NCBI GenBank assembly: GCA_020343875.1 | Contig: CP070811.1 | Coordinates: forward strand, 4,882,310 to 4,946,309 | From: Anaerolineales bacterium | Lineage (GTDB): Bacteria > Chloroflexota > Anaerolineae > 4572-78 > NAK82 | DNA: 64,000 nt | Reading direction: 5' to 3' | Part shown: positions 4,284-44,385 of the stretch, piece by piece | Position numbering within the stretch: the stretch's first letter is position 1 | How the letters are laid out: every line of letters begins with the position of its first letter | Notes under the pieces: generated by a model | Seen by the model: only the letters and a program-made list of their open reading frames with translations | What the model was told of the DNA's origin: nothing | Databases searched by the model: none | Position numbers and translations under genes: made by a program

Positions 4284-6038
4284 TCAAAACTCGGACGAGA
4301 TCAAGAAGTAAATGCTCTCGATATCTTCTTCGCTGCCCTCGAACTTCTTGCCGTTGGTGCGGTTGGCCAGGGTAGCCATCAAATCTTCGTCGGCGTCCTT
4401 ACCATAGGCAATGGTGTAGATCTTGACACTGCTGGCCTCAGCACCGGAGGGCAGCCGGCTGAGCATATCAGCCTGGCTGGGGCCGCCCGCGACTTCGTTG
4501 AGCCCATCGGATAGTAGGACAACCCCATAGATACGCTGCTCGCCCTCCGCTTCGTGCTCTGCCTGCAAGCCATCGACACGCTCCAGCGCGTGAATGACAG
4601 ACTGGTATAGAGCGGTACCCCCGCCAGCGTACAATCCCTCAATGGTCAGTCGCAAATTCTCTGCGTTACTGCCCACCTCCCCGGCATAGGGCAACTCGAG
4701 TATCTCGTCGGAGAACACAATCACGTAAATCTCGTCAGCAGGGTCCATCTGGCCGATAAACAGGGTAGCCCCACGAACGGCCTGTTTAATTTTGGTCCCT
4801 TTCATACTACCCGAGACGTCGATCAACATCACCACGGTCGCCTTCTTCTTGACCTCGTGCCACGTGTCGATGATGTGGCTGATGATCTCGTCACTGGGAT
4901 AGGGCAGGTGTGGTACATCCTTCTGGGTGATGGCAGGCACAGCCCCGTGGGCCAGGTCTATGGGCGACTGCAACGCCACCGACTCGTCCGCGGGGCGCAG
5001 CCCCCATTTGACCGTACGCGCCTGCTGTGAGGGAGTGAGAAGATAATCGCGGAAGATCCCGGCAGCTTCAGCCTGCTCCGGGCTCACCCAATCGGCATTC
5101 AGAATGCAATAAGGATTCTGCACCCAAAAAGTGCCACCGGACGGATAGATCGCCACCAATGGGAATTGCAGTTCCTCGGCATGATCTGTATTCCACTTGA
5201 TGACGTTGCTCTCATACGAGGTAACCGCGTGCAAGTAGTCAGGCCCACGCTGGGTCATACGGGTCAGGATATCGGTGTCTGTTCTACCGTAATGGAAGAC
5301 ATTCCGTTCCACCGCGCCCACCCGCTCGGCAACCGTTTCACTTTTGACGCGCTCGACTGTCAGCCCTTCAGTTACCTCAGCCGCATCGTACACCTCGGCC
5401 ACCAGCGAGAGCATGCCCGAATTGCTATGTTCGGGGTGAGGGTGGCCGAATTTGAACTGACCCCATTCCGGGTGTCCATAAGCACCCCAGCCCTCAGGAT
5501 TATTCGATAGCGCGGCCAGGTCGTTCCAGCCGATGAGGGCATCAGGCCAACCCAAGGCGCGAGCCATTGGCTCCCACATAGCGATGGCCAGCGGCACTCG
5601 AATAGTGGCTGGGCACTCCGACTGAATCAGGTTCCGGCCGGTCCTGTCATTCCAGGTCTGGTTAATACGTGTCACCCACAATTGGCTGCCAGGGCTCCAG
5701 ACCGTAGGCAGAATCTCACCATCCAGGATGTCATTCATCGAACTGCCGGAGCCAACGTGGTAGGCTACCACCACAATCGGCCGCCCGTCGGCAACGGTTT
5801 TGCCTTCAGCGTTGAAAGACTCCACCACCTCGTTTATCCAATCCTGCTTGGTATTCGACGAGTGAAACTCGACCACGACGGCATCTTGCGGCAAAGGGGT
5901 GCCAGGCACGTCACTACCAGCAGAGGGTAGCCCCACCGGCGAGCCGCCCAAAAACGTCACCCCGGCCATGACCATCACTATCACACAAGCAAACGCCATG
6001 ATCAAAAAGAAGACAACACGTGTGCGACTGAGGTTCAC
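4284..6038 (-). CDS. membrane-anchored solute-binding-protein-like domain fused to a von Willebrand factor A (vWA) domain
   Basis: 584-aa ORF with an N-terminal TM helix. The C-terminal vWA has a MIDAS-like motif (VVMLIDVSGSMKG ... LLSDG). It lies 46 nt upstream of the 344..4237 gene on the same strand. A GGAGGGA RBS precedes the start. Confidence 0.8.
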   Translation of the reverse strand: MNLSRTRVVFFLIMAFACVIVMVMAGVTFLGGSPVGLPSAGSDVPGTPLPQDAVVVEFHSSNTKQDWINEVVESFNAEGKTVADGRPIVVVAYHVGSGSSMNDILDGEILPTVWSPGSQLWVTRINQTWNDRTGRNLIQSECPATIRVPLAIAMWEPMARALGWPDALIGWNDLAALSNNPEGWGAYGHPEWGQFKFGHPHPEHSNSGMLSLVAEVYDAAEVTEGLTVERVKSETVAERVGAVERNVFHYGRTDTDILTRMTQRGPDYLHAVTSYESNVIKWNTDHAEELQFPLVAIYPSGGTFWVQNPYCILNADWVSPEQAEAAGIFRDYLLTPSQQARTVKWGLRPADESVALQSPIDLAHGAVPAITQKDVPHLPYPSDEIISHIIDTWHEVKKKATVVMLIDVSGSMKGTKIKQAVRGATLFIGQMDPADEIYVIVFSDEILELPYAGEVGSNAENLRLTIEGLYAGGGTALYQSVIHALERVDGLQAEHEAEGEQRIYGVVLLSDGLNEVAGGPSQADMLSRLPSGAEASSVKIYTIAYGKDADEDLMATLANRTNGKKFEGSEEDIESIYFLISSEF

Positions 6039-6281
6039 CGGTCTCCCTCCTTTTTCGCCCCCCTGGTGGGCCAGTACCTCGTGCCTGTCTGAGGCGCAAG
6101 AAGCCAGGATTTACCAGTCCTTGGCCAGCAGATTCGCTGCAGTTTATTGCTGCCGCGGGGCAGCTTATTCAAATCATAGCAACAAATCAGGAGGGTGTCA
6201 AAACGGCTGTCCGGCCGGGAATTCGATCAGCCGCCAGATGCCCGACTCTCGATTCTGGCCCACACGCGTGCTGAAGTAAGA

Positions 6282-6962
6282 TTAAGCCATGGAGGCCATC
6301 ATTTCCTGCACGGCGTCCAGCTCGTCTTGGTTGATGGTATGGCCCATGTTGGGATACAACCGCAGAGTGACCTGGCCACCCAACTGCTGAAAAATGTCGG
6401 CAGAGTGGACCACCCGCTCTTTTGGAATGTGAAAGTCGACCTCACTGCAGCCCAGGAGGATGGGGGTGCCATCCAATGCGCCCGAATAGGCGCGCTGCGT
6501 GTCGCTGCTTGCATCCGGTTGTCCTGGATTGGGGCCGATCAAGCCCCCGCTCAGTCCGGCCACACCCGCGTAGCGGCGGGGATGGCGGGCAGCAAATTCC
6601 AGGGCCAGACATGCGCCCTGTGAGAAGCCCAGCAGGATGGTACGCTCAGCCGGGATGCCGGCCTGTGACAAGCGGGCCAGGGTTTCCCCGACTGCCGCTA
6701 GCGCCGAAGAAAGGAACGGTTCGTTGCTAGCGATGGGCGCCATAAATGGATGGGGATACCAGGTGTTGCCAGCGGCTTGGGGGGCCAGATACGCAAAATC
6801 TGGGTGGGCCAACTCGGCCGCCAGGGCAAGAATATCTTCAGCCGACGCCCCGCGCCCGTGAACAAGAATCATGGCCGCGCTGGCCTTTTCCAGCCTTTTA
6901 CCCGCCGCCAACACAGGCTGGCCCTGATGTGGTCCCTGCACAGAAAACTGTCCCTCGGTCAT
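6282..6962 (-). CDS. phospholipase/carboxylesterase-family alpha/beta hydrolase (MhqD-like)
   Basis: 226 aa with the nucleophile elbow GFSQGA and C-terminal D/H residues. Its start overlaps the upstream dioxygenase stop as ATGA (6959..6962). Confidence 0.85.
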   Translation of the reverse strand: MTEGQFSVQGPHQGQPVLAAGKRLEKASAAMILVHGRGASAEDILALAAELAHPDFAYLAPQAAGNTWYPHPFMAPIASNEPFLSSALAAVGETLARLSQAGIPAERTILLGFSQGACLALEFAARHPRRYAGVAGLSGGLIGPNPGQPDASSDTQRAYSGALDGTPILLGCSEVDFHIPKERVVHSADIFQQLGGQVTLRLYPNMGHTINQDELDAVQEMMASMA

Positions 6963-11559: not shown

Positions 11560-11776
11560 CTCCTGTTACTGGAGCACATTCTAATTATGGAAACTGATTA
11601 TGTCCACGGCTATTATACCTTGAATTGGTTTATATGTCAAGTTTGATTTTTATGTCTAGAAATCGCCTCAACAAGGGGGTAAGGTGCCCTGCTGCCTTTT
11701 CACTTTGGGGGCATGAATGCGTCAGGGGCGATCACGTGAGGGTGCATGGAGATAGTGGGATTATCTGTGGGCGAAG

Positions 11777-17430: not shown

Positions 17431-17459
17431 TTGACATGACACAACCTTGGTGATATAAT
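17431..17459 (+). promoter_or_regulatory. perfect consensus sigma70 promoter TTGACA-N17-TATAAT
   Basis: TTGACA at 17431..17436, a 17-nt spacer, TATAAT at 17454..17459. The next plus-strand gene starts at 17771, giving a ~305-nt leader. Confidence 0.75.
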
Positions 17460-30056: not shown

Positions 30057-33000
30057 CTAAATCATTTCGAGTTCATCGCCCTCGGCATCCTGCATATCTA
30101 GCTCTTCGGCTTCCCTGTACAAGTCGCCTTCCATAGCTTGGTCGAAGATGCCTTCCACATCCAAGTCAATGTCATCCTGACCGTTTCCCTGGCCGACGAT
30201 CACTTCTTCTTCGCGTTCTTTGTGCTGGTGATAACCCGTACCGGCAGGGATAAGCTTGCCAATGATAACATTCTCCTTAAGACCAAATAGTTCATCTTCC
30301 TTTCCTTCGATAGCAGCTTGCGCCAAAACGTTGATAGTATGCTGGAAAGACGCAGCTGACAGGAAGCTATCGGTATTGAGGGCGGCTTTGGTGATGCCCA
30401 ACAACACAGGCCGCCCGTTTGCAGGCCGCTTGCCAGCAGCGAGAAGTCGGTCATTCATCCTCTGAAACCTTAAGCGGTCAATCAGTTCACCTGGCAAATA
30501 GTCACTGTCGCCACTTGCGGTGATTCGAACTTTGCTGGTCATCTGGCGAACGATAAGCTCGATGTGTTTGTCGTGAATGGATACACCTTGCGAACGGTAG
30601 ACTCGTTGAACTTCCTCTAACATGTACACCTGCGCCGCTTCACGGCCCAAGATACGCAAGATGCGGTTGGGATTCTTGGAACCTTCAGTCAGCTGCTGCC
30701 CGGAGGTGACCCAGCTGCCAGGTTCGACGCGCAAGCGCGCTGCCGAAGCCACTTCGTATTGAAACTCATCTTTGTATTCCCCGCGAACGACTATTGTCCG
30801 CCCGTCTCGCTGAACCACCCCGGCGTGCTCGGCCAAAGTCTCTTTATCACCACGCTTGGCAAGCTGGGCACGTGCGGCGACTTCATCCCCGTCTTCCACC
30901 GAGATTGCCCAGTTACCGGGAACTTCATACACGTCCTCGCGCATCTCCGAAAAGGTCACCTTGAGCATACGCGCGCCATCTTCACTGGTCAGCAGCTCTA
31001 CACGCCCATCAATGTCAGAGATGATCGCTTCACCCTTGGGATTTCGAGCCTCAAAAAGCTCTTGAACCCGGGGCAAACCGTGGGTGATATCCTCGACACC
31101 TGCTACGCCACCCGTGTGAAAGGTTCGCAGTGTGAGCTGGGTTCCAGGCTCACCAATGGACTGTGCAGCGATAATGCCTACCGCTTCACCCACCTTCGCC
31201 AACCCTCCTCGGGCCAGGTCACGCCCGTAGCACATCGCACAAACGCCCTGCTCCAGCTCGCACACCAATGGAGTTCGCACGTACACATCAACCCCAGCCT
31301 TAAGGATAGCGTTTGCTTTGTCCTCCTCAATCATCTGGTCGCGATCAACGATGATCTCCCCCGTCTTCGGATCAACAACCGAGGCAGCGGCGAGGCGTCC
31401 TATAACACGCTCGTCCAAGGACTCGCCCATCCCCCTCGAGGAATCGGATTGAACCCACATGCCGGAATGGGTACCACAGTCAATGGCATTGACGATCAAG
31501 TCCTGTGCCACATCCACCAGCCGGCGGGTGAGGTATCCAGCGTCTGCGGTGCGCAACGCCGTATCGGCCAACCCTTTACGCGCGCCGTGGGTAGAGATAA
31601 AGTATTCTAGCGCAGTCAGGCCCTCCCGGAAATTGGAGCGGATCGGCAAAGGGATAATGCGGCCGGACGGGTCAGCCATCAAGCCACGCATCCCGGCCAA
31701 CTGGCGGATGGGCTGAAAGCCACCCTTGGTCGCACCTGAATCGGCCATAATGCGGATAGGGCTCTGCGCATCAATGGATTGGCGTACCGCTTCAGTTACA
31801 TCATCAGTTGCCTGGGTCCACAGTTCGACTGTCTTGACGTATTGCTCGTCTTCTGTAATAAGCCCACGCCGATACTGCTGCTCGACCTTCGCAACCTGCT
31901 GACTCACCTGCTCCAGAATCTCTTTCTTGATACTGGGCACCGTAATATCCGACACCGCAATTGTAGTGCCCGACTTGGTGGCATACTTAAAGCCAATGCT
32001 CTTAATGTCGTCCACCAGCTTGGAGGTTGCTTCTGAGCCCAGCTTCTGATAGCAGGTGCCCACCAAGTCCTGCAATTTGCCCTTTTCGAGCACTTCGTTA
32101 ACGTAGCGCAGCTCGTCGGGCAGGATCTGGTTGAAGAGCGCCCGGCCGACGGAAGTCTCGACAGGATACTTGCGGGCGATCCGTCTTTCCGTCACCTTCA
32201 TTACCTTGATTTTGGCATGCAGATCAACTTTGCCCAGGGCGTAGGCCAGGGCAACTTCGTCCAAGTCGGCGAAGACTTTTCCCTCCCCTCTCTGACCTTC
32301 TTCGGCCATCGTGAGGTAGTAGACGCCCAACACCATATCCTTGGTTGGACCCACCACCGGCTTACCGTTAGCTGGCAACAACAAGTTCTTGGTGGAGAAC
32401 ATCAGCTCACGGGCCTCTTCTACCGCCCTCCTTGACAAGGGAATGTGGACTGCCATCTGGTCACCATCAAAGTCAGCATTGAAAGCCGTGCACACCAAGG
32501 GGTGAATCTGGATGGCGTTGCCTTCGACCAGCACCGGCTCAAAAGCTTGGATGCCCAGCCGATGCAAGGTAGGCGCCCGGTTTAGCAGAATGGGACGGGT
32601 CTGGATAACCTCTTCCAATACTTCCCATACTTCAGGGCGTTGCTGCTCAACGATGCGCTTGGCTCCCTTGACATTGTTGGCATAGTTGTATTCCACCAGC
32701 TTCTGGATTACAAACGGGCGGAACAGCTCCAAGGCCATTCCCTTGGGCAAGCCAGCTTGATGCAATTCCAGGTCGGGGCCGATGACAATGACAGAGCGTC
32801 CCGAATAATCCACACGCTTGCCCAGCAGGTTGCGACGGAACCGTCCCTGCTTGCCCTTGAGCATATCGGAGAGTGATTTGAGCTGTCGTCTGCCCCGTGA
32901 CGAGACTGCTTTGCCACGGCGGCTATTGTCTATGAGGGAGTCTACCGCTTCCTGCAACATACGTTTTTCATTGCGCACAATAACGTCAGGCGCGCTTAGC

Positions 33001-34352
33001 TCCAACAATCGCTTCAGTCGATTATTGCGATTGATGACACGCCGATACAGATCGTTCAGATCACTGGTGGCAAAACGCCCACCGTCGAGCTGGACCATAG
33101 GCCGCAAATCGGGCGGGATGACAGGCAACACAGCCAGAATCATCCACTCCGGTCGATTCTTACACTTGCGCAACGATTCTACCACGCGCAACCGCTTAAC
33201 GGCTTTTTTCCGGACTTGCTTCGAGCGAGTGCTGCGAATCTGGGCACGTAACTCCTTGGCCAACCTGTCCAGATCCAATTCAACGCAGATATCACGCAAG
33301 GCCTCAGCGCCCATGCCCGCCTTAAATATATGCCCCCAACGTTCATCCAGATCACGGTATTGAACTTCGGTGAGGAAGTCCATCTGCTGGAAACTCAAAA
33401 GCTCGTCGCGCTGGTCTTCCAAACGCCCGCCCAGGTCAGTCAGCTCCTGCTCAGTCGTCCTTGCCAAATTGTCAATTTCTTGGTCGGTGGTAAAACGCAG
33501 ACGGTCAATTTCGGCCTCAATCACGTCTGTCTCTCGGGCCAACTCCTCCTCGATCTCGGCTTTGATCTCATTCAGCCGTTCCTCAACCATCTCGTTCAGT
33601 CTGACCAGGTGCTCCTGGCCTATCACGTCATCTACTTCGGCCACCGGGGTGTCAGCCTGTGTGAAGGCAACATGCTCAGTCAGCTTCATGCCCAGCTGCT
33701 TCTCCAGCTTCTGCTGAACTGACTGCGCATCCTTCATCACCGCCTCGATAGACTGGGTCTGCCGCTCATCAAGATGCTGCTGGATAGCTTTTTGCTTGTC
33801 GCGCAAGTTCTCGATTTGGCTGTCAAGCCCCTCACGCAAGGTGTCAATTTGCTCCTGCTGGGCCCGCTCCATGCGAGTCCGCTCACGACTGAGCTCCTCG
33901 TCGAGCCGCTTAAGCGCCTTCGCCCGCGCCTGTTCGTCAACCCGAGTGATGATGTACTGGGCAAAGTAAAGTACGCGATCCAAGTTACGCCGCGATATAT
34001 CAAGCAACAACCCTAGATAAGAAGGCACCCGCCGCGTATACCAGATGTGGGCCACGGGGGCCGCCAGCTCAATGTGTCCCATACGTTCTCGCCGCACGGC
34101 GGAACGTGTCACGAGTACCCCACACTTTTCGCAAGTAATGCCCTTGTAACGAATTTGCTTATACTTGCCACAATAACACTGCCAGTCCTTGGTGGGGCCG
34201 AAAATGGCTTCGCAGAAGAGCCCGTCTTTTTCAGGCCGCAATCTTCGGTAGTTGATCGTCTCTGGCTTGGTGACCTCACCATATGACCAACCGCGAATCT
34301 CCTCTGGTGAAGCTAAGCTGATGCGCAACGCGCGAAAGTCCTTTACTTCCAA
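30057..34352 (-). CDS. rpoC: DNA-directed RNA polymerase subunit beta-prime
   Basis: Zinc-binding [24 protein letters not shown], and trigger-loop/bridge-helix regions. Probable TTG start at 34352 (LEVKDF...) with a GGAGG 6 nt upstream; the track extends to 34391. Confidence 0.95.
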
Positions 34353-34458
34353 GGTAAGCCTCCAAAGTCTCCAAGTCTGCAAATCTCCCAACCTGCAATG
34401 ACCCGCATCCTGCTAACGAAACACGGGGCGCCGCTAGTTGATTTGCCCATCACCGATG

Positions 34459-35334
34459 TCATAATTCACTAATGTAACGAGTCGTAGTAGCCAGGTTCTG
34501 ATGCCCCAACCGTTCGGAAACCAGCGCCAGGTCGCCCGTTCTGGCCAGCAATCGATTGGCGTAGGTACGACGCAAAGCCTGGGGTGATACACCCTCCAGC
34601 CCAGCAGCCCGGGCGCGGCTGCTCACAATACGTTGCACACTGCGTGCAGAAAGAGAGCGGCCTTCACGACTCAAGAACAGATGAGATTCTCCCTCAACAT
34701 TGGGGCGCACTGCCAGATATTCGTAAAGCACGTGTCGTACTTCGCCTTTCAGGGGAATCTCCCGAGTTACACCGTTCCGTCCATCCTTGATCAATAGGTG
34801 AGTACCAGGATGATCAAACCGGACGTCATCCAGGCGCAATTCCACTAATTCATTAACCCGTATTCCAGTGTGCAGCAAGAGCATAAGGATGGCTGTGGCA
34901 CGCCGTGCCAGACTGGGCTGCTCGCTCCCAGATACTTGGAGGAGTACTTCAACCTGTTTTCCGCTTAGCGGCGCGGTGCGAACACGGCCTTCATCCTGAA
35001 CCAGCTGGATTCCTTGGGCAGGATTAGAGTGTATCAGCCCTGCCCGCACGGCGAAAGCACCAAACTTGCGCAACGCCTGCAACCGCCGATTAATGGTGGC
35101 CGCAGCACACTGCTTCTCTTTCAGAAGGTGAGAACGATACCTCCGGATCAGATCAGGGCTAAGCGTCGCCAGTGAGAACTGTGGCCCAACGTAGTCCATG
35201 CCCCACCGCACAACAGCTCGCAAGTCAGCCAGATAATTAACGACTGTTGAAGGTGACAATTGCGTCAGGATCAGATGTTCTTCAAATTGGGACAGTAAGG
35301 CCTCGGCCGCGCCCTGGCTTGTCTGGGGGCTCAT
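34459..35334 (-). CDS. tyrosine site-specific recombinase (XerC/XerD-like integrase family)
   Basis: 291 aa. SAM-like N-terminal domain, then a catalytic domain with TGIRVNEL (Arg), LRRTYA (Arg), LGHQNLATTTRY (His, Tyr). It lies 67-106 nt upstream of rpoC on the same strand. Confidence 0.85.
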   Translation of the reverse strand: MSPQTSQGAAEALLSQFEEHLILTQLSPSTVVNYLADLRAVVRWGMDYVGPQFSLATLSPDLIRRYRSHLLKEKQCAAATINRRLQALRKFGAFAVRAGLIHSNPAQGIQLVQDEGRVRTAPLSGKQVEVLLQVSGSEQPSLARRATAILMLLLHTGIRVNELVELRLDDVRFDHPGTHLLIKDGRNGVTREIPLKGEVRHVLYEYLAVRPNVEGESHLFLSREGRSLSARSVQRIVSSRARAAGLEGVSPQALRRTYANRLLARTGDLALVSERLGHQNLATTTRYISEL

Positions 35335-35462
35335 AACGTAGCAAAAGACCGCTTAATCTACTAGCTTCTCAAGACACGACAAAAGGCGCCGACGTTAAGG
35401 GCGACGCCATCATTGCGTGCTTGCACAACTCTGGATTTTCAATCACTAGGAAACGACACGCT

Positions 35463-35491
35463 ATTATAGCATAATCCCGCACACCTGTCAA
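35463..35491 (-). promoter_or_regulatory. perfect consensus sigma70 promoter TTGACA-N17-TATAAT (minus strand)
   Basis: Minus-strand read: cacTTGACAggtgtgcgggattatgcTATAATagc. About 120 nt upstream of the recombinase start. No obvious promoter in the 34392..34458 gap before rpoC. Confidence 0.75.
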
Positions 35492-38793: not shown

Positions 38794-39411
38794 CTATTGA
38801 GCTTGTTCCACGAGCCCGGAGAAGAGACGGGGGACATCACCCGGGACCCAGATTCTCACCGACCAGTAGATATAGCGCAAGACATCATTGAACCTGGGCA
38901 CCAGCGTCGATGTGCCTATTTGCCCCTGGATGGCGACCCGGGTGCTGTTGGCGGCAGGCCAGCCAGACCCAACGGCAAACTGAAAGACGGCCAAAATCAA
39001 GCTGATCCAGACAATGGTTACCAGCAAGCCTACCAGCAAGCCAAAAAGTTGATTCAACGGCCCGGTTAGGAACCTGCGACTGCTCTTAGCCATCGCTTCC
39101 TGCAACTCACCTTTCCTCGTGCGCTTACGCTCTTCCGGCGGTGTGCTAAGATAACGAGTGAGGAAACTGAGGCCATTCACAGAGACAAGCAGAAGGAAGA
39201 CAAAGGCCAGTGATTGGCTTCCCTGAACCGACATGGCAGCCAGCAGGTTGCGAAAAAACCGGGCCAGCGGCCGGTGGAGTACAAGGGAAATGACCAGCCC
39301 CACGTACAAGCTGAAGAGACCGATCACCAATCTGCCCGCGCCACGCAGCAGTCCCCACAACATGCCGATCACAAGAAAGAATATCAACAGGAAATCCAAG
39401 GCGTTGAACAT
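38794..39411 (-). CDS. cvpA: CvpA-family membrane protein
   Basis: 205 aa with 4-5 TM helices. The N-terminus (NALDFLLIFFLVIGMLWGLLRG) is typical of CvpA. The cvpA-mutS2 synteny is known from Firmicutes. Confidence 0.7.
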   Translation of the reverse strand: MFNALDFLLIFFLVIGMLWGLLRGAGRLVIGLFSLYVGLVISLVLHRPLARFFRNLLAAMSVQGSQSLAFVFLLLVSVNGLSFLTRYLSTPPEERKRTRKGELQEAMAKSSRRFLTGPLNQLFGLLVGLLVTIVWISLILAVFQFAVGSGWPAANSTRVAIQGQIGTSTLVPRFNDVLRYIYWSVRIWVPGDVPRLFSGLVEQAQ

Positions 39412-39418
39412 CAGTGAC

Positions 39419-40981
39419 TTACCCTCCTTCTCTCAGCGCCCCAGCAATGGATCGGGCCAGCGTTCCATCGGCGATCAACTGTCGGACCGCTTCGATGTAT
39501 GGATACATAATAGCATCATTCTCCAAAAATGGCACATGCTGGCGTACCAGCTCGTAAGCCACGCGAGTCCCCCGCCCCAGTTGTGCCGATGGGCCTAGTT
39601 CTTCATGTCGGAATCCAACGCCCTGAGCGGCGGCCATTAACTCTAGAGCCAGAATCCGTTCCAGGTTATCAAGGATTTGGCAAACCTGCCGAGCAGCTGT
39701 GCAGCCCATACTGACGTGATCTTCCATGTTGGCCGAGGTAGGTATCGTGTCCACGCTGGCAGGGTGGGCCAGTACCTTATTCTCCGAGGTCAGAGCAGCA
39801 GCCGTGTATTGGACGAGCATAAAACCGGAGTTAAGGCCGCCGTGCTTGATGAGAAAAGCCGGCAAAACATGAGCATTGCTTGCCTCATCTGTAAGACGGG
39901 TGATACGCCGCTCCGAGATGTTGCCCAATTCGGTCAGGGCCATAGCCAGATAATCCATTGCGATGGCTACTGGCTCGCCATGGAAGTTACCCCCGGAGAG
40001 AACGACTACTTCGTTTCCTTCAAAGAATAGGAGCGGGTTATCGGTGGCCGCGTTTAACTCAATTTCGATGACCCAGCGGGCGTAGGCAATGGCATCTCGC
40101 ACAGCGCCATGCACCTGGGGGATGCAGCGCAGAGTATACGCATCCTGCACGTTGTAAGGATCGTGGTGGCGGGTAAAGTCGCTGCCATCCAACAACTGAC
40201 GCAAGTGCCGGGCGCAGTCAACTTGCCGCGGGTGAGGGCGAACGGCTTGGATACGTTCATCGAAGGCCAAAGAGGTACCATGCAATGCCTCCAGGCTCAG
40301 ACAACCGGCAGCGTCGGCGATGCAACTCAACTGCTCAGCCTGGTTAACGACCAAAGCCCCCAGGGCACTCATCACCGCTGTGCCATTGGTGAGCGCCAGG
40401 CCCTCTTTGGCGGCCAACACGGTCGGCATCAGACCGGCCCTCCGCAATGCTTCGGCACCAGGCCAGACCTGGCCCTCAAACTCCGCCTCTCCTTCACCGA
40501 TAAGTACCAATGCCATATGGGCCAAGGGAGCCAGATCACCGCTAGCTCCCAGCGAACCCTGGCTGGGGATGACGGGATGCACGCCCCGATTGAGCATATC
40601 CAGCAACAGGTTGAGCGTCTCCAGTCGGATCCCCGAATGGCCCTTGGCCAGGGTGTTGGCGCGGATGAGCATCAACGCGCGCACTGTGGGCCGATCGAAC
40701 GGCTCTCCTACGCCCACCGCATGGCTCATGACGATGTTGCGCTGGAGCTGCTCAACCTGATCAGGCTCGATGATCCGGTCTTTGAATGCCCCGAAGCCAG
40801 TAGTGATACCGTAGACGATTTCGCCCCGCGCAATCAACTCGATGATAGCTTGCTGCGCACGCCGTACTCTGCCCACCGCACCGGGCGACAGCACCACCGT
40901 CGCCTCCCCCGGGGTAGCCCCGGCTATAGCTGCCACTTGCTCAAGGGTCAGACTCTCGCCGTCGAGAGATAGGCTGTTCAT
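39419..40981 (-). CDS. hutH: histidine ammonia-lyase
   Basis: 520 aa. MIO-forming ASG in GSLGASGDLAPLAH. The selectivity motif MSHAVGVG (Ser-His) is typical of HAL rather than PAL/TAL. Confidence 0.9.
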   Translation of the reverse strand: MNSLSLDGESLTLEQVAAIAGATPGEATVVLSPGAVGRVRRAQQAIIELIARGEIVYGITTGFGAFKDRIIEPDQVEQLQRNIVMSHAVGVGEPFDRPTVRALMLIRANTLAKGHSGIRLETLNLLLDMLNRGVHPVIPSQGSLGASGDLAPLAHMALVLIGEGEAEFEGQVWPGAEALRRAGLMPTVLAAKEGLALTNGTAVMSALGALVVNQAEQLSCIADAAGCLSLEALHGTSLAFDERIQAVRPHPRQVDCARHLRQLLDGSDFTRHHDPYNVQDAYTLRCIPQVHGAVRDAIAYARWVIEIELNAATDNPLLFFEGNEVVVLSGGNFHGEPVAIAMDYLAMALTELGNISERRITRLTDEASNAHVLPAFLIKHGGLNSGFMLVQYTAAALTSENKVLAHPASVDTIPTSANMEDHVSMGCTAARQVCQILDNLERILALELMAAAQGVGFRHEELGPSAQLGRGTRVAYELVRQHVPFLENDAIMYPYIEAVRQLIADGTLARSIAGALREGG

Positions 40982-41159: not shown

Positions 41160-41768
41160 ATGGAGATTAGACTCTACGCAACGCTTCGAGAGATCGTTGG
41201 CGGTAAGAGCGTATACATTGACAGTCTGCCAGAGATGACGATCGAGCACCTGCTGCAGGAGATCTTTATCATCCACCCAGCGCTGCGCGCCCAGATATAC
41301 GACCAGGAAGGCCAATTGCGCCCGTCCATCCACGTTTTGGTAAACGGTCGAGACACGCGGTTTCTGGCTGGACTGGACACCCCGGTACAGGCCCACGATC
41401 AGGTGTCGATCTTCCCGCCCGTAGGAGGGGGCGGCCCGAAGGCTGCTCAGCCAGCCAGCAAACTAGGCCCAGCCACCAAGCAAGGCCTGACCCGAGTCAC
41501 CCTCAAATTCACCACCCACGCCCGGGAACGTATGGGCCGCGATCGCCTGGGGTTCACCTTCGCCGGTGACACCTTGCGAGCCTTGCTAAATGACCTGTGT
41601 GCTCAATACGATGTGGGGGATCTGATTCTTGATGCGCGAGGCGAGGTCCAGCCAGGGCTGCAAGTGGTAATTAATGGCCGCTTCGCCTATTTGATGGGGC
41701 ACCTGGACGCGCCAATCCACGATGGAGACCTGGTGGTTCTGATTCACCGGTCCACAGTCGCCTTCTAA
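41160..41768 (+). CDS. tandem beta-grasp protein: MoaD/ThiS-like domain ending in an internal PPVGGGG, a linker, and a second MoaD-like domain without terminal GG
   Basis: 202 aa. Residues 1-92 look like a complete MoaD (MEIRLYATLREIVG...VSIFPPVGGGG). Residues ~110-202 repeat the pattern (VVINGRF..., DGDLVVLIHRSTVAF). Confidence 0.7.
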   Translation: MEIRLYATLREIVGGKSVYIDSLPEMTIEHLLQEIFIIHPALRAQIYDQEGQLRPSIHVLVNGRDTRFLAGLDTPVQAHDQVSIFPPVGGGGPKAAQPASKLGPATKQGLTRVTLKFTTHARERMGRDRLGFTFAGDTLRALLNDLCAQYDVGDLILDARGEVQPGLQVVINGRFAYLMGHLDAPIHDGDLVVLIHRSTVAF

Positions 41769-41843: not shown

Positions 41844-43676
41844 CTAGGCGATGATCTCCAATTCCTTGAGCTTCTCCTCTGGAACTACTCCGTCTTTCCA
41901 GCCCCGCTTTTCATAGTATTCGGCCAGCATTTCGGCCAGCTCGCAGACTTGGCCCTCTGCGCCAGGGCCGGTAGCAGGTTCCTTCAGGAAGCGCTCCGGC
42001 AGGTAATCGGAGCCCTCGCGGAATCCAACCAGGTTGTTGTAGTATCGCTCCAGGTTGAAGACACGCTCGCCAAGTTTCAACAAATCGCCAGCTGTGTAGG
42101 TCTGACCAGTCACGGCTGAGAGCTGAGCAGCAAAGGCGTCCAGCGACTCCGCGAAGGTAGCAAACTTGCACACGTTTAGGCAGTCCGTCATGGTATGCAC
42201 ATTCTGGAAAATGATCGCGAACTCGCCCTTACCCTTCCACTCCAGCGGGTCCGTCAACGCTGTCGGGCCGAGAACGTTGGCCACGACCTCCCCAGCTGGG
42301 GTGTAGCCTCGCAGGTGGCAGGCGCCCCGGTTCGAGGTGGCATAACCAATCCCCATACCCTTGATACCGCGTGGGTCGTAGGCAGGGATGGCCATCCCCT
42401 TGACCGTCATGGCGATTTCAGGATGCCCCATTGCCTTGGCTGCTCGCTCGGTCCCCTCGGCCAGCAGGTCACCCACCCCATCGCGCATCGCAATCTTGGT
42501 GACTAGCTCGACCATGCTAGCATGATCACCCCACGCCAGACCAGAGCCGTGGCCGTTCAGATAGCCCTTCTCCGTGGCCTCCATGTACATCGAAAGGACA
42601 TTGCCCATCTCGATAGCATCAAGGCTGTAATCGTTGCACAGATCAATCAATTTGGCGATAGACGCAGCGTTGTTGTTGTCACAGTTGGCACCAAAAGCCC
42701 AGGCCGGCTCGTACTCCAGGCTCTCCATGCGCAAGCCCTTATAAGGCCCTTCCGTGATCTCCACCTCCTTTTTGCACGCCACCGGGCAGGCATGGCAGGT
42801 GGGATCACTGACCAAGATGGTCTCCTTGACCCGCTCGCCACTAATGTCTTCATGGGGCGTAAAGTAGGTGAGCTGAGAATTCTTGGTGGGCATAGCCCCG
42901 ATGGCATTCACCATATTCATCAGGACATTGGTGCCGTAGACTGACAATCCGCCCTTGCGCGGCGCCGTGACTACGTCCTCGTGCATAAGTTGCTCTAAGG
43001 CAACCTTTTGTGCTTCCTTGAAACCCTCTTTGTCCGCCGGCCGCGGCCGGTCTTCGTGTTTGCCTCGCACCACGACGCATTTCAGATTCTTGCTGCCGGC
43101 CACGCAGCCAGTGCCTCCCCGGCCAGAGGCGCGGTCGTGCTCGTTAACGATGCAGGCATAGCGCGACAGCTTTTCGCCTCCCTGGCCGATGGCCATGACA
43201 CTCAGATCATCCTCTCCATACTTGTCAAACACGGCCTTGACGGTGTCGTGCACGCCCTTGCCCCACAGCTCCGAGGCATCTTCCAGCGTCACCTCTCCAT
43301 CCTCGATGAAGACATAGGTCGGCCTTGCAGCCTTTCCCTTGAAGACGATACCGTCCAGCCCGGCCCATTTCAGGCGCGCGCCGCTCCAGCCGCCGTGATG
43401 AGAGTCAGCCACCGTACCGGTCAGTGGGGACTTGGTCACCGCCGCAATACGGCCGCTCAAGTTGACATCCGTGCCAGTCAGAGGTCCAGTCATCAGGCAC
43501 AAGATATTGTCCGGCGAAAGGGGATCCACATCGGGGCCATTGTCGAAGACGTATTTTACCCCCAAACCCCGTGACCCAACGTACTTTCGAGCGTCCTCCT
43601 CATCAATAGGCTTGTACTCGACTGCGCCTGATGTCAGGTCGACCCAAGCCACCCGGTTGTGAAACCCTCCTAACAT
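41844..43676 (-). CDS. aor: aldehyde:ferredoxin oxidoreductase (tungstopterin AOR family)
   Basis: 610 aa with an AOR_N start (FHNRVAWVDLTSG...YKPIDEE). It has the Cys ligand region CHACPVACK and family-typical length. Confidence 0.9.
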   Translation of the reverse strand: MLGGFHNRVAWVDLTSGAVEYKPIDEEDARKYVGSRGLGVKYVFDNGPDVDPLSPDNILCLMTGPLTGTDVNLSGRIAAVTKSPLTGTVADSHHGGWSGARLKWAGLDGIVFKGKAARPTYVFIEDGEVTLEDASELWGKGVHDTVKAVFDKYGEDDLSVMAIGQGGEKLSRYACIVNEHDRASGRGGTGCVAGSKNLKCVVVRGKHEDRPRPADKEGFKEAQKVALEQLMHEDVVTAPRKGGLSVYGTNVLMNMVNAIGAMPTKNSQLTYFTPHEDISGERVKETILVSDPTCHACPVACKKEVEITEGPYKGLRMESLEYEPAWAFGANCDNNNAASIAKLIDLCNDYSLDAIEMGNVLSMYMEATEKGYLNGHGSGLAWGDHASMVELVTKIAMRDGVGDLLAEGTERAAKAMGHPEIAMTVKGMAIPAYDPRGIKGMGIGYATSNRGACHLRGYTPAGEVVANVLGPTALTDPLEWKGKGEFAIIFQNVHTMTDCLNVCKFATFAESLDAFAAQLSAVTGQTYTAGDLLKLGERVFNLERYYNNLVGFREGSDYLPERFLKEPATGPGAEGQVCELAEMLAEYYEKRGWKDGVVPEEKLKELEIIA

Positions 43677-43743
43677 AGCTTACCTCCTTCTTTAATAATA
43701 GATTCTTCAGTAGGGACAGGGAATGGCCCCCAACCATCCACTC

Positions 43744-43784
43744 CCAAAACAAAAAGCGTTATGCCTAGAAAGCACAACGCTTTT
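43744..43784 (-). terminator. intrinsic terminator inside the AOR 5' leader
   Basis: Minus-strand RNA: AAAAGCGUUGUGC-UUUCUAG-GCAUAACGCUUUU (13 bp including one G.U), followed by UGUUUUGGG. It ends about 70 nt upstream of the AOR ATG (RBS AAGGAGG). Confidence 0.6.
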
Positions 43785-43942
43785 CACTACACAAATGTCT
43801 AGACCGCCAAAGGCTAGACCTCCCGCTTGCGGCAACACCCACCACGGGACAAGAGCCTGCGTCAAAACAGAAAACCGCCTTTCATTACTGGTCTTCAGCG
43901 ACAAACAGCAGTGGCGGAAACAATGGATCGGAGTGCAGTCCT

Positions 43943-43971
43943 ATTATATCACCGACAACACCGACTGTCAA
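43943..43971 (-). promoter_or_regulatory. perfect consensus sigma70 promoter TTGACA-N17-TATAAT (minus strand)
   Basis: Minus-strand read: cgtcaTTGACAgtcggtgttgtcggtgaTATAATagg. About 260 nt upstream of the AOR start. Confidence 0.75.
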
Positions 43972-44041
43972 TGACGGATAAGCGCGCACGCGAATAGAGG
44001 ATGTAAGTCTCGCGCACTGCTCAACCAGACAGACCGCACCA

Positions 44042-44076
44042 GAAAAAAACAGGGACACGCCACAGGCGGCGTGCCC
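44042..44076 (-). terminator. rho-independent terminator of rpsT
   Basis: Minus-strand read: GGGCACGCC-GCCUGU-GGCGUGUCCC (9 bp plus a 1-nt bulge), followed by UGUUUUUUU. It starts 37 nt after the rpsT stop. Confidence 0.8.
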
Positions 44077-44112
44077 GGTTGTAGTTCGCTTACCCGAGCA
44101 GAGCGATTTGAA

Positions 44113-44385
44113 TTATTCGGCAGCTTGGGCCTTGCGCAGCAATTTGACCAGGCGCGATTTGCGTCGGGCTGCATTGTTTTTATGGATAACACCCTTTTGG
44201 GCAGCCCTATCCAGCGCCCTGATAGCCGAGGCAACCTGGGCCTCAGCCTGTTCCACGTCACCGGCCTCAATCAGACGCCGTGTCTTCTTGATGCCGGACC
44301 GGGCAGACGATCGATAAATCCGATTGGCTACACGCCGCTTTTCATTCTGGCGGGCGCGTTTGATTGCCGATTTGATGTTTGCCAA
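44113..44385 (-). CDS. rpsT: 30S ribosomal protein S20
   Basis: MANIKSAIKRARQNEKRR... 90 aa, basic and helical, typical of S20. Confidence 0.9.
   Translation of the reverse strand: MANIKSAIKRARQNEKRRVANRIYRSSARSGIKKTRRLIEAGDVEQAEAQVASAIRALDRAAQKGVIHKNNAARRKSRLVKLLRKAQAAE

Follow-up and report, generated by a model that had tools for sequence, protein, structure and literature searches.

Tungsten-dependent enzymes of the aldehyde:ferredoxin oxidoreductase (AOR) family are widespread in anaerobes, and their regulation in bacteria is mostly unknown. The regulatory precedents are the ModE proteins and the Moco/Tuco riboswitch. In E. coli, ModE activates molybdenum-enzyme genes from upstream sites, and its site at moaA precedes the promoter. 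Promoter-proximal structured RNAs followed by one or more intrinsic terminators are also known from processive antitermination (put of phage HK022 and EAR of Bacillus); these RNAs need no alternative helix for read-through and serve long operons. Moco/Tuco riboswitches precede molybdo- and tungsto-enzyme genes, those of the AOR type included, and some of them use intrinsic terminators; at E. coli moaA a ModE site is combined with a Moco riboswitch in the 5' UTR (PMC2408646). ModE also activates Moco biosynthesis (PMC12327845). Published ModE motifs are ATCGNTATATA-N6-TATATANCGAT in E. coli and ATCGTTATgTc... in G. sulfurreducens (PMC545781), and RTTATGT-N8-RCATAAY, verified by EMSA, in M. acetivorans (PMC12327845).

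We have analysed the leader of an AOR gene on the minus strand of a 64-kb stretch of DNA (hereafter, the window). Its position corresponds to that of Moco/Tuco riboswitches, which occupy the 5' UTR of genes for Mo/W cofactor biosynthesis, transport or utilisation, and a structured leader ahead of AOR with an intrinsic terminator is a feature shared with some of their representatives. The preliminary description had left the leader unclassified and had refrained from calling a Moco riboswitch, and both judgements were borne out: Rfam gave no match in the whole window at gathering thresholds, and none to any family, RF01055 included, for positions 43500-44200 at E ≤ 10 with permissive filters. 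Sixteen related AOR loci likewise contain no RF01055, the only matches being a tRNA and a CRISPR repeat, and the L007 leader returned only noise (loci are designated by L numbers). Membership of the Moco/Tuco family was rejected for want of any covariance-model match. The leader differs from that family in its architecture, a hairpin followed by a three-way junction with no detectable relation and no antiterminator found, and in occurring at AOR-family genes only, not at genes for transporters or cofactor biosynthesis.

Organization of the AOR locus

The features of the locus are collected in Table 1. A promoter, a leader of about 260 nt, a hairpin, a terminator and an AAGGAGG ribosome-binding site had been described ahead of the AOR gene, and each was found where it had been placed, on the minus strand. 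The promoter consists of TTGACA (43971-43966), a 17-nt spacer and TGA-TATAAT (43948-43943) and scores 12/12 with an extended TG in the promoter scan; transcription would start near 43936. The sequence TTGACAG...TGATATAATA is conserved in the homologous leaders L031, L033, L039, L040, L136, L116 and L001. With at most one mismatch, TTGACA-N17-TATAAT is expected 0.09 times per window by chance; there are, however, four perfect copies in the window, which makes perfect promoters habitual in this genome rather than special to the AOR locus. Because the upstream rpsT has its own terminator (44076-44053), the leader promoter is insulated from rpsT transcription.

The AOR gene product contains the domains AFOR_N (6e-74) and AFOR_C (1.5e-129), and its homologues are named aldehyde:ferredoxin oxidoreductase. 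The hairpin between terminator and ribosome-binding site has equivalents (GGGAGA...UCUCCC) in L033, L040 and L116 and is missing from L001. The MoaD/ThiS protein encoded by the convergent gene matches moaD_arch (96.9 bits) and SAMP1 (109 bits). A MoaD-like gene adjoins AOR in most of the loci compared, and, as context, the convergent gene marks the locus as a pterin-cofactor module.

Table 1. Positions of the features of the AOR locus within the window
Feature	Coordinates	Strand	Basis
rpsT, gene upstream of the leader	44113-44385		Pfam Ribosomal_S20p (S20p)
Terminator hairpin of upstream rpsT, then U run	44053..44076	-	Terminator scan; -17.9 kcal/mol, z -3.2
Sigma-70-type consensus promoter, TTGACA-N17-(TGA)TATAAT	43943..43971	-	Promoter scan and conservation in homologues
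P1 hairpin, CCGCC (43917-43913):GGCGG (43879-43875), then UUUUCUGUUUU	43875..43917	-	Alifold and pair counts
Second leader domain, three-way junction (helices 3-6)	43795..43866	-	Alifold, pair counts
Intrinsic terminator; stem of 16 bp made up of A tract, box and U tract, with a short loop and the tail UUUUUGUUUU	43746..43784	-	Folding
23-bp ModE-type box CGTTGTGCT-TTCTA-GGCATAACG, palindromic candidate DNA operator, core of the terminator stem	43757..43779	.	Pattern and PWM
Hairpin of the read-through 5' UTR, RBS-like arm and pyrimidine arm (GGGAGUGGAUGG...CCAUUCCCUGUCCC)	43712..43744	-	MFE fold
Ribosome-binding site AAGGAGG, 6 nt ahead of the ATG	43683..43689	-	Sequence
AOR-family gene, 610 aa, ATG at 43676	41844..43676	-	Pfam
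Convergent gene, protein with two MoaD/ThiS domains (pterin-cofactor sulfur-carrier family)	41160..41768	+	ThiS x2

Fold and distribution of the leader RNA

In P1, the CCGCC:GGCGG helix closes an inner helix (CUG-UUU-GUC...GAC-CAG), with the invariant block GUGAAAGGCGG on the 3' side. The three-way junction of the family comprises a closing helix UUUGAC:GUCAAG, a long P2 (GGCUCUYGUCCCG...CGGGAGGCC) and a short P3. The window version has a weak closing helix, and GUCUAG:CUAGAC as its P3. The L001 leader was found from the window leader by nhmmer (E 2.6e-19), and the set comprises nine distinct members, with an effective number of 2.5. For these RNAalifold gives 52 pairs, of which 10 show compensatory change, a number reached by only 3 of 500 shuffles; 91.4% of the cells are paired, versus 35-49% in slid controls. 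P1 (helices 1-2) has 86% of its cells paired and compensatory change in 2 pairs, and for the terminator (helix 7) the figures are 98.5% and 3. Further covariation can be followed by eye: in P1, CCGCC:GGCGG becomes CUACC:GGUGG in L116 and CUG:CAG becomes CCG:CGG in L033, neither being captured in the A2 alignment, and in P2, UCCCG:CGGGA becomes UCGUC:GACGA in L031. Taken alone, the window leader has an unremarkable folding energy (z -0.8 for 43792-43936, z -2.3 for the full 260 nt), so that the case for a leader structure is made by the comparison of homologues and not by energy. From this comparison, the first ~130 nt of the RNA are predicted to adopt a conserved fold of P1 hairpin and three-way junction, aptamer-like and covarying as in riboswitches generally.

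A covariance model of the family, R1, scores 101.7 bits against window positions 43792-43920 and 74-131 bits across the nine members, the window and all others being training members. Each of the nine leaders lies immediately upstream of an AOR-family gene, and the one in L136 precedes an AOR paralogue with 31% identity to the AOR of the window. The absence of the leader upstream of AOR orthologues, named in the preliminary description as evidence that would count against its proposal, is thus not what was observed. Most window-type members share the synteny rpsT-leader-AOR (L146 has no rpsT match upstream of the leader), and vertical inheritance therefore inflates the apparent association with AOR. 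Model R1 found no copy apart from AOR in the rest of the window or in the 0.93 Mb searched, a sample biased to AOR loci. The leader is not general to AOR orthologues: genes 57-77% identical (L002-L006, L009, L011-L014, L017-L030, L035 and L037) have neither leader nor box, and the motif is clade-limited. The idea that other AOR leader types are distant relatives of the window type was likewise rejected, as R1 finds none of them; they are treated here as putative separate families sharing the box and terminator only. An alignment of six Caldilineales leaders contains a short conserved hairpin and the terminator, and nothing more. Inspection of the leader for a leader peptide revealed no ribosome-binding site or conserved ORF. 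By these comparisons the leader motif is new, seen here only before AOR-family genes of Anaerolineae-like Chloroflexota.

The terminator and its ModE-type stem

The terminator (AAAAGCGUUGUGCU...GGCAUAACGCUUUU plus UGUUUUGG, 43784-43745) folds with -20.0 kcal/mol, versus -7.9 ± 2.2 kcal/mol for shuffles (z -5.4), and its U tract ends 68 nt ahead of the AOR ATG; a simple terminator scan did not list it. Homologous terminator hairpins have energies of -15 to -24 kcal/mol, with 7-9 of the 10 tail nucleotides being U (5 in L151), and across 21 AOR-linked loci a hairpin is followed by 5-9 U in the 10-nt tail. The element thus has the stable, G+C-containing stem-loop and U tract of an intrinsic terminator, together with selection on RNA pairing, and the predicted RNA ends at this strong terminator ~190 nt from its start.

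The preliminary description had taken the terminator for a generic one, but the stem is a sequence-conserved palindrome of ModE type, common to tupA promoters by modE-N-like genes. The fixed 23-bp palindrome CGYTRTG-N9-CAYARCG (half-site profile C-G-Y-T-R-T-G-Y-Y, from 48 half-sites) has its sole exact match in the window here, with a PWM score of 27.7; no further copies were found in the window, either weaker by PWM or with spacers of 3-8 nt. It was present in 13 of the 40 loci examined at that stage, and occurs in the window-type, Caldilineales, L007, L041, L066/L071/L121 and L151 leaders and in L038, so that several other AOR leader types missed by the window-type model carry it too. Both sequence and size of the stem stay constant from one unlinked leader type to another and between AOR clades ~31% identical, with free variation in the loops. 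At L117, L161, L163 and L164/L165 the order is a modE-N-like gene, the box overlapping TTGCNN-N17-TATGMT, and tupA(BC); here the box overlaps the -10 of the tupA promoter and has neither U tract nor perfect pairing. At L038 the modE-N-like gene is followed by the box and AOR. The modE-N-like proteins match the ModE repressor domain TIGR00637 at E 7e-23, and the TupA proteins match NF041772 at E 5e-62, both under the NCBI cut-off. Sharing of the stem with these tupA promoters suggests that at least one input comes from a DNA-binding regulator. The 64-kb window contains no modE-N-like or tupA gene, and the presence of the regulator in its genome is therefore assumed.

Where the two half-sites of an AOR-linked box differ at stem positions 1-8, the sense RNA has G.U pairs (11 cases) and no A.C or C.A, whereas mismatches of the C.A kind are tolerated in the tupA boxes, which fold with only -11 kcal/mol. 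Judged from these substitutions, the box of the AOR leaders is also under an RNA-pairing constraint, in addition to its conservation as a DNA box.

The box resembles ModE operators (inverted repeats of CGnTATAT or RTTATGT) in its inverted repeat and its CG-Y-TATG-type half-site. At related loci, though not in the window, it also shares their setting, lying over the -10 of an oxyanion-transporter promoter beside a modE-type gene; like them, it occurs before cofactor-dependent enzyme genes as well. Relative to the motifs of E. coli and M. acetivorans, its spacing is reduced by 1 bp: CG...CG spans 23 bp, versus 24 in E. coli and G. sulfurreducens, and in M. acetivorans terms the arrangement is 7+7+7 versus 7+8+7. 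The box-associated regulator differs from ModE in having the N-terminal DNA-binding domain only, with no metal-binding Mop/TOBE domains, and the AOR box differs from ModE operators in lying inside a transcribed leader, where A/U tracts make of it an intrinsic terminator with a constraint on RNA pairing. The E. coli moaA control region is similar in joining a ModE-type DNA site and a structured leader RNA in one cofactor-related operon; there, however, ModE site and riboswitch are separate, whereas the AOR leader has its DNA site built into the terminator that follows the fold.

A scan of metagenomes for the box flanked by A/U, a pattern biased towards terminators by those flanks, gave at least 11 loci with an AOR-family gene just downstream and at least 1 with modE-N and tupA among the 120 matches listed, in which no gene family besides AOR recurs downstream across lineages. 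About 46 of the 120 are two redundant terminators. The latter come from apparently common gut organisms.

Read-through of the terminator

The promoter scan found no promoter-like site on the minus strand between terminator and AOR (43744-43677), and by eye no downstream promoter is conserved; in the GC-rich Caldilineales leaders this region offers no usable -10. No conserved antiterminator was found either: alifold of the leaders cut before the 3' arm of the terminator leaves the 5' arm unpaired, and neither terminator arm pairs with the leader at better energies than in shuffles, 19 of 21 loci lying within z ± 1.7 (the strongest complementarity of the right arm to the leader is that of L041, z -2.6). 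The 3' strand of P1, GUGAAAGGCGGUUGU, resembles the 5' arm of the terminator and in 6 of 9 members can form a duplex of -10 to -15 kcal/mol with the 3' arm; as an antiterminator it was rejected, being statistically indistinguishable from chance. The mutually exclusive terminator and antiterminator pairings of a riboswitch were thus not seen. With neither an antiterminator helix nor a downstream promoter-like site, AOR is most likely expressed by read-through of the terminator. We infer that this read-through is regulated rather than observe it, since no switching structure was found. Of the attenuation layout proposed in the preliminary description, the promoter, structured leader, terminator and AOR gene are real and conserved, and what could not be recovered is a classical riboswitch expression platform; its suggestion that AOR is gated by conditional read-through gains from the lack of a downstream promoter-like site and is left without a structure that switches.

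Discussion

We give about even weight to the proposal that the interval is transcribed as the 5' leader of AOR and acts as a transcription attenuator whose stop signal doubles as a regulator-binding site. The consensus promoter would start an RNA that folds into P1 and the three-way junction and ends at the terminator, and AOR mRNA would arise only from polymerases that read through. The box would be the operator of a ModE-like, Mo/W-linked DNA-binding protein, for which it is a candidate, and AOR would share a regulon with tupA; from the shared box, membership of the locus in a ModE-like Mo/W regulon is probable. As the box lies at about +160 in the transcribed leader, a bound protein could only act as a roadblock, and repression of AOR in step with tupA would therefore be expected, layered on termination at the RNA level. 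The leader fold may set or sense the fraction of read-through without a classical antiterminator helix, conceivably through binding of a factor or ligand or through modification of the polymerase, and we infer an interplay between fold and box. A promoter-proximal structured RNA followed by a terminator is also the layout of put and EAR, a mechanistic analogy alone and not one based on comparison of sequence or structure; those RNAs serve long operons, whereas the AOR leader precedes a single enzyme gene. Against reading the interval as attenuator and operator, a DNA-bound protein cannot directly alter hairpin-driven termination, which leaves the coincidence of operator and terminator unexplained, and a roadblock predicts that AOR is co-repressed with the tungstate importer, the opposite of E. 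coli ModE.

The conserved, covarying fold has a typical aptamer size (~130 nt), is exclusively associated with AOR-family genes, a distant paralogue included, and is followed by a strong terminator; given also the Moco/Tuco precedent at tungsten-enzyme genes, in part with terminators (PMC2408646), it could be the aptamer of a classical metabolite riboswitch in which the tungsten cofactor, tungstate or an aldehyde-related metabolite decides the fate of the terminator and the likeness to ModE boxes is secondary or coincidental. We regard this as unlikely. The pairing of the P1 3' strand with the terminator 3' arm in 6 of 9 members speaks in its favour, but no Rfam riboswitch model matches, no mutually exclusive helix is conserved, the complementarity of arms and leader does not exceed that of shuffles, and an aptamer platform would leave unexplained why the stem recurs in undetected leader types and at tupA promoters. 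The leader's own strong promoter and strong terminator, and the lack of an antiterminator, would suit an independent ~190-nt sRNA, possibly trans-acting, as the preliminary description had offered as its alternative; a ModE-like protein bound at the box, as an operator upstream, would then activate a weak AOR promoter within 43745-43690, much as E. coli ModE activates molybdenum-enzyme genes. In the window, L039 and L001, A/T-rich stretches do contain -10-like hexamers (TATTAT, TCTAAT and TAAAAT, respectively) 15-35 nt ahead of the ATG. The scan nevertheless finds no promoter downstream of the terminator, and the Caldilineales-type leaders show no usable -10 by eye. A fixed activator geometry is also hard to reconcile with spacings between box and ATG of 56 to 190 nt (519 in L007) and with the loss of the intervening hairpin in L001. 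A further weakness of the sRNA reading is that the RNA was never encountered without an AOR-family gene next to it, all nine members preceding one, so that conservation independent of the downstream gene is not seen; we judge it quite improbable.

It is also very improbable, in our estimate, that the element is a constitutive insulator, that is, a leaky ordinary terminator behind a 5' UTR serving stability or processing, with AOR expressed by a fixed read-through of a very strong promoter and a ModE likeness owed to chance or to functionless shared ancestry. In its favour, no switching structure was found, perfect promoters are common in the window, and many of the metagenome matches to box and U tract are generic terminators of unrelated genes. 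It does not accommodate a stem that is invariant across unlinked leader types and AOR clades ~31% identical while the loops are free, the identical box at tupA promoters beside modE-N-like genes where terminator features are lacking, or the fact that AOR is the sole gene family recurring downstream across lineages among the matches listed.

Returning to the attenuator with an operator in its stop signal, a more far-reaching form of it can be offered tentatively, and we hold it to be rather doubtful. One sequence would be read twice, as the DNA operator of a ModE-like Mo/W regulator and as the RNA terminator of a new leader class. The fold in the window would be one of several lineage-specific ways past the terminator, either a new riboswitch with a tungsten ligand or a put-like RNA that modifies the polymerase, and AOR would integrate protein-sensed and RNA-sensed signals at the same 40 nt.

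The AOR locus would represent a third arrangement beside ModE and the Moco/Tuco riboswitch, an uncatalogued, AOR-specific structured leader in Chloroflexota whose terminator stem is a conserved transcription-factor box common to tungstate-transporter promoters. If this is true, Rfam would gain a new family of cis-regulatory RNA, and a tungsten regulon of tupABC and AOR genes, under ModE proteins without a metal-binding domain, would be defined for a poorly studied and mostly uncultured phylum. It would also provide a clear case of simultaneous selection on one sequence as DNA operator and RNA hairpin, which has rarely been documented.

Layout and conservation of the AOR leader

The features upstream of the gene for a tungsten-type aldehyde:ferredoxin oxidoreductase (AOR) are listed in the table below. 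The preliminary description had reported a consensus promoter, the P1 hairpin, a terminator, a ribosome-binding site and the AOR start, and re-reading of the minus-strand sequence bore these out as described. The leader terminator has a folding energy of -20 kcal/mol, versus -7.9 +/- 2.2 in shuffles, and is absent from the output of a simple terminator scan.

Features of the AOR leader region and perfect promoters in the window
Feature	Position	Strand	Basis or remark
rpsT	44113-44385	-	Pfam S20p; first gene upstream of leader
rpsT terminator	44076-44053	-	terminator scan; -17.9 kcal/mol
Promoter TTGACA-N17-TGA-TATAAT	43971-43943	-	score 12/12, extended TG (promoter scan)
P1 hairpin CCGCC...GGCGG, then UUUUCUGUUUU	43917-43875	-	read from sequence
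Strong hairpin AAAAGCGUUGUGCU...GGCAUAACGCUUUU + UGUUUUGG	43784-43745	-	terminator of leader
Ribosome-binding site AAGGAGG	43689-43683	-	read from sequence
AOR start codon ATG	43676	-	opens 610-aa protein; AFOR_N + AFOR_C (Pfam)
Perfect promoter	11612-11640	-	pattern search
Perfect promoter	17431-17459	+	pattern search
Perfect promoter	35463-35491	-	pattern search
Perfect promoter (AOR leader)	43943-43971	-	pattern search

Four perfect copies of TTGACA-N17-TATAAT occur in the 64-kb window, where 0.09 copies with up to one mismatch are expected by chance. Perfection is thus a habit of the genome, which uses full-consensus promoters unusually often, and no special mark of the AOR locus. Downstream of the perfect promoter at 35463-35491 lies an untranslated stretch of ~100 nt (about 35340-35462, minus strand) with a GC hairpin and U run, GGCGUCGCC...GUCGGCGCCUUUUGUCG, preceding a tyrosine-recombinase-like ORF (34459-35334) and an rpoC-like gene (30057-34391). 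This stretch, with a z-score of only -0.9 for its fold, may be a further leader or a small RNA.

Judged by its AOR relatives from genomes, the window belongs to Anaerolineae-like Chloroflexota. At L001, the closest locus (AOR identity 86%), nhmmer detects a homologous leader with E 2.6e-19. Close AOR protein look-ups and a metagenome scan, among the matches listed, gave a set of nine distinct leaders (window, L001, L031, L033, L039, L040, L116, L136 and L146), all of which keep a TTGACAG...TGATATAAT-type promoter. The RNAalifold structure of the leader, which rests on the comparison of few sequences (effective number 2.5), comprises the P1 hairpin, a three-way junction (closing helix UUUGAC:GUCAAG, long P2, short P3) and the terminator, in that order. 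Ten of its 52 pairs show compensatory changes, a count reached by only 3 of 500 column shuffles, and 91.4% of cells are paired; shifting the partners by 1-3 columns lowers this share to 35-49%. Covariation is also visible by eye in P2 (UCCCG:CGGGA to UCGUC:GACGA in L031) and P1 (CCGCC:GGCGG to CUACC:GGUGG in L116). Folded singly, the window leader is unremarkable (z -0.8), with a weak junction-closing helix. The nine members score 74-131 bits against a 131-nt covariance model (the window-type model), which finds no further matches in 0.93 Mb of collected sequence or the rest of the window.

An AOR-family gene lies directly downstream of all nine leaders, and the order rpsT-leader-AOR-MoaD-like gene is common to at least seven. 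At L136, rpsT and leader are kept and the downstream gene comes from another clade of the AOR family (MWILRLNMTDRS..., 31% identical); at L146, leader and AOR orthologue are present and the upstream rpsT match is absent. The leader is conserved upstream of AOR orthologues and of one paralogue, and so withstands a refuting condition set in the preliminary description. In other lineages, orthologues with 57-77% AOR identity are without the leader, and two of these leaderless genes (L035, L037) lie in a gamma-glutamyltranspeptidase context.

Convergent with AOR, a gene at 41160-41768 (plus strand) encodes a 202-aa protein with two tandem MoaD/ThiS domains (moaD_arch, SAMP1). Most related loci have a MoaD-like gene adjoining AOR, which points to a conserved module of AOR and a pterin-cofactor sulfur carrier. 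Beyond this pair lie an aromatic amino acid lyase of the histidine/phenylalanine ammonia-lyase family (39419-40981, minus strand) and a CvpA-like gene (38794-39411, minus strand), both syntenic in relatives; these neighbours hint at aldehydes from amino acid breakdown as AOR substrates.

A ModE-type box in the terminator stem

The core of the terminator stem is a 23-bp palindrome, CGYTRTG-N9-CAYARCG (hereafter, the box), which has a single copy in the window (43757-43779) and is present in 13 of the 40 loci first collected. Four Caldilineales-type AOR loci (L008, L010, L015, L016), whose leaders are undetected by the window-type model, have the same architecture of consensus promoter, ~150-nt leader, hairpin with U tract, 85-105 nt and AOR, with a terminator stem nearly identical in sequence to that of the window. 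The metagenome scan, unbiased and run with the A/U-flanked box as its pattern, returned at least 120 matches; about 46 of those listed represent two redundant terminators, apparently from common gut organisms. At least 11 loci have an AOR-family gene immediately downstream, including more leader types (L041, L066, L071, L121, L151) and the second AOR clade, and no other downstream family recurs across lineages among the matches listed. A matrix built from 48 half-sites found neither weaker copies nor copies with other spacers.

At L007 (3255-3780), the interval from a consensus-like promoter to AOR holds a ~125-nt element in three tandem copies. A 15-bp helix (CCCUCCCGCAGGUCA...UGACCUGCGGGAGGG) closes each copy, and the box/terminator follows copy 1. 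The element has no Rfam match at E<=10 and may be a riboswitch-like array or a repeat element. In L008, L010, L015, L016, L068 and L148, 85-130 nt separate terminator and AOR start. The Caldilineales-type read-through 5' UTRs show a striking richness in C/U and scarcity of G (e.g. CUGCCGCCCUUUUCCGCCACCCCGCCUUCGUCCCCC) and hold a CCUUCG...CGAAGG hairpin with one anti-ribosome-binding-site-like arm; they could be Rho-loading or translation-control sequences.

The box also occurs at tungstate transporter genes. In L117, a gene for a 115-aa protein is followed after 12 nt by GGCGTTATGCTTTTTAAACATAACG; a lipoprotein gene with a TTTSTADSGLLD motif begins another 26 nt on. The lipoprotein matches TupA NF041772 (E 5e-62). 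For the 115-aa protein, the match is to the ModE repressor domain TIGR00637 (E 7e-23), and both matches are below the NCBI curated cut-off. The 115-aa protein further matches residues 1-90 of E. coli-type ModE, and its homologues, named 'molybdate transport system regulatory protein' by JGI, are common in Caldilineae and Anaerolineae. The order modE-N-like gene, box, tupA(BC) recurs in L161, L163 and L164/L165. At each of the four tupA loci, a -10 hexamer (TATGCT or TATGAT) is supplied by the left half-site, 17 nt past TTGCTT, TTGCCG or TTGCGT, a geometry shared with the repressor operator at the E. coli modA promoter. The U tract is absent at the L163 and L164 boxes.

L038 has a modE-N-like gene (2477-2824), a box without U tract and an AOR 75% identical to that of the window; downstream, a gene (5472-6431) encodes a regulator with a LysR-type HTH, a LysR substrate domain and, weakly matched, PBP_like_2. 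Protein regulators replace the RNA leader in this lineage.

Published ModE motifs, namely ATCGNTATATA-N6-TATATANCGAT in E. coli and ATCGTTATgTc... in G. sulfurreducens (PMC545781), and RTTATGT-N8-RCATAAY in M. acetivorans, demonstrated by EMSA (PMC12327845), have their half-site in common with the box. The box has a spacing shorter by 1 bp, and the associated regulator is without metal-binding domains, so we use the label "ModE-type" rather than proven ModE site.

For all 21 AOR-linked boxes with a U tract, stem energies lie between -15 and -24 kcal/mol, and 5-9 of the 10 tail nucleotides are U. Half-site differences at stem positions 1-8 of AOR-linked boxes comprise 11 G.U and no A.C or C.A on the sense RNA, whereas the tupA boxes of L117 and L161 have internal C.A mismatches and fold with only -11 kcal/mol. 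Since stem sequence is conserved and stem size fixed while loops vary freely, the sequence is held operator-like; at AOR genes, pairing and U tract are under constraint too.

Known RNA families

For AOR-type genes, the precedent that comes first to mind is the Moco/Tuco riboswitch (PMC2408646). Rfam 15 returned no family at gathering score anywhere in the window, none at E<=10 with permissive filters in 43500-44200, and no riboswitch in sixteen related AOR loci. The absence of a match rules out a Moco/Tuco identity for the AOR leader, and the earlier decision not to call one was sound.

Probable read-through and alternative readings

On the minus strand of the window, the promoter scan found no promoter-like site in the interval from terminator to AOR, nor was there, by eye, a usable -10 downstream of the terminator in GC-rich Caldilineales leaders, so AOR is most likely expressed by terminator read-through. 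An independent sRNA combined with a ModE-activated AOR promoter would be an improbable account of the locus. A classical riboswitch is also unlikely, if slightly less so. The conserved fold may sense a ligand, bind a protein or modify the polymerase in a put-like way. No switching structure emerged: in alignments cut short of the 3' arm, the 5' arm is unpaired in the consensus fold. Either terminator arm pairs with the leader no better than with shuffled leaders (19 of 21 loci within z +/-1.7; strongest right-arm value -2.6, L041). The 3' strand of P1, GUGAAAGGCGGUUGU, is invariant and similar to the 5' arm of the terminator, and in six of nine members it is able to pair with the 3' arm; this strand, and a similar GUUGUGC element in Caldilineales leaders, could be an auxiliary half-site or RNA mimic. 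Least probable of all is a constitutive leaky insulator.

The reading best supported is a cis-acting AOR leader that is an attenuator whose terminator doubles as a ModE-type box.

The kinds of element involved (attenuating leader, intrinsic terminator, ModE box) are all known. To our knowledge, neither their fusion nor a leader family specific to AOR genes has been described, and the literature searched on AOR with riboswitch, structured RNA or Chloroflexi, or on ModE with tupA, holds no description of the element.

A terminator doubling as a ModE-type box would place AOR in the same regulon as tupABC. We infer both the step from box to regulator and that from regulator to effect. A protein bound at about +160 would be physically limited to roadblock action, which predicts co-repression of AOR and tupA. 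E. coli ModE, in contrast, activates Mo-enzyme genes, the opposite of this prediction. Co-repression of AOR and tupA would fit a demand-driven tungsten regulon.
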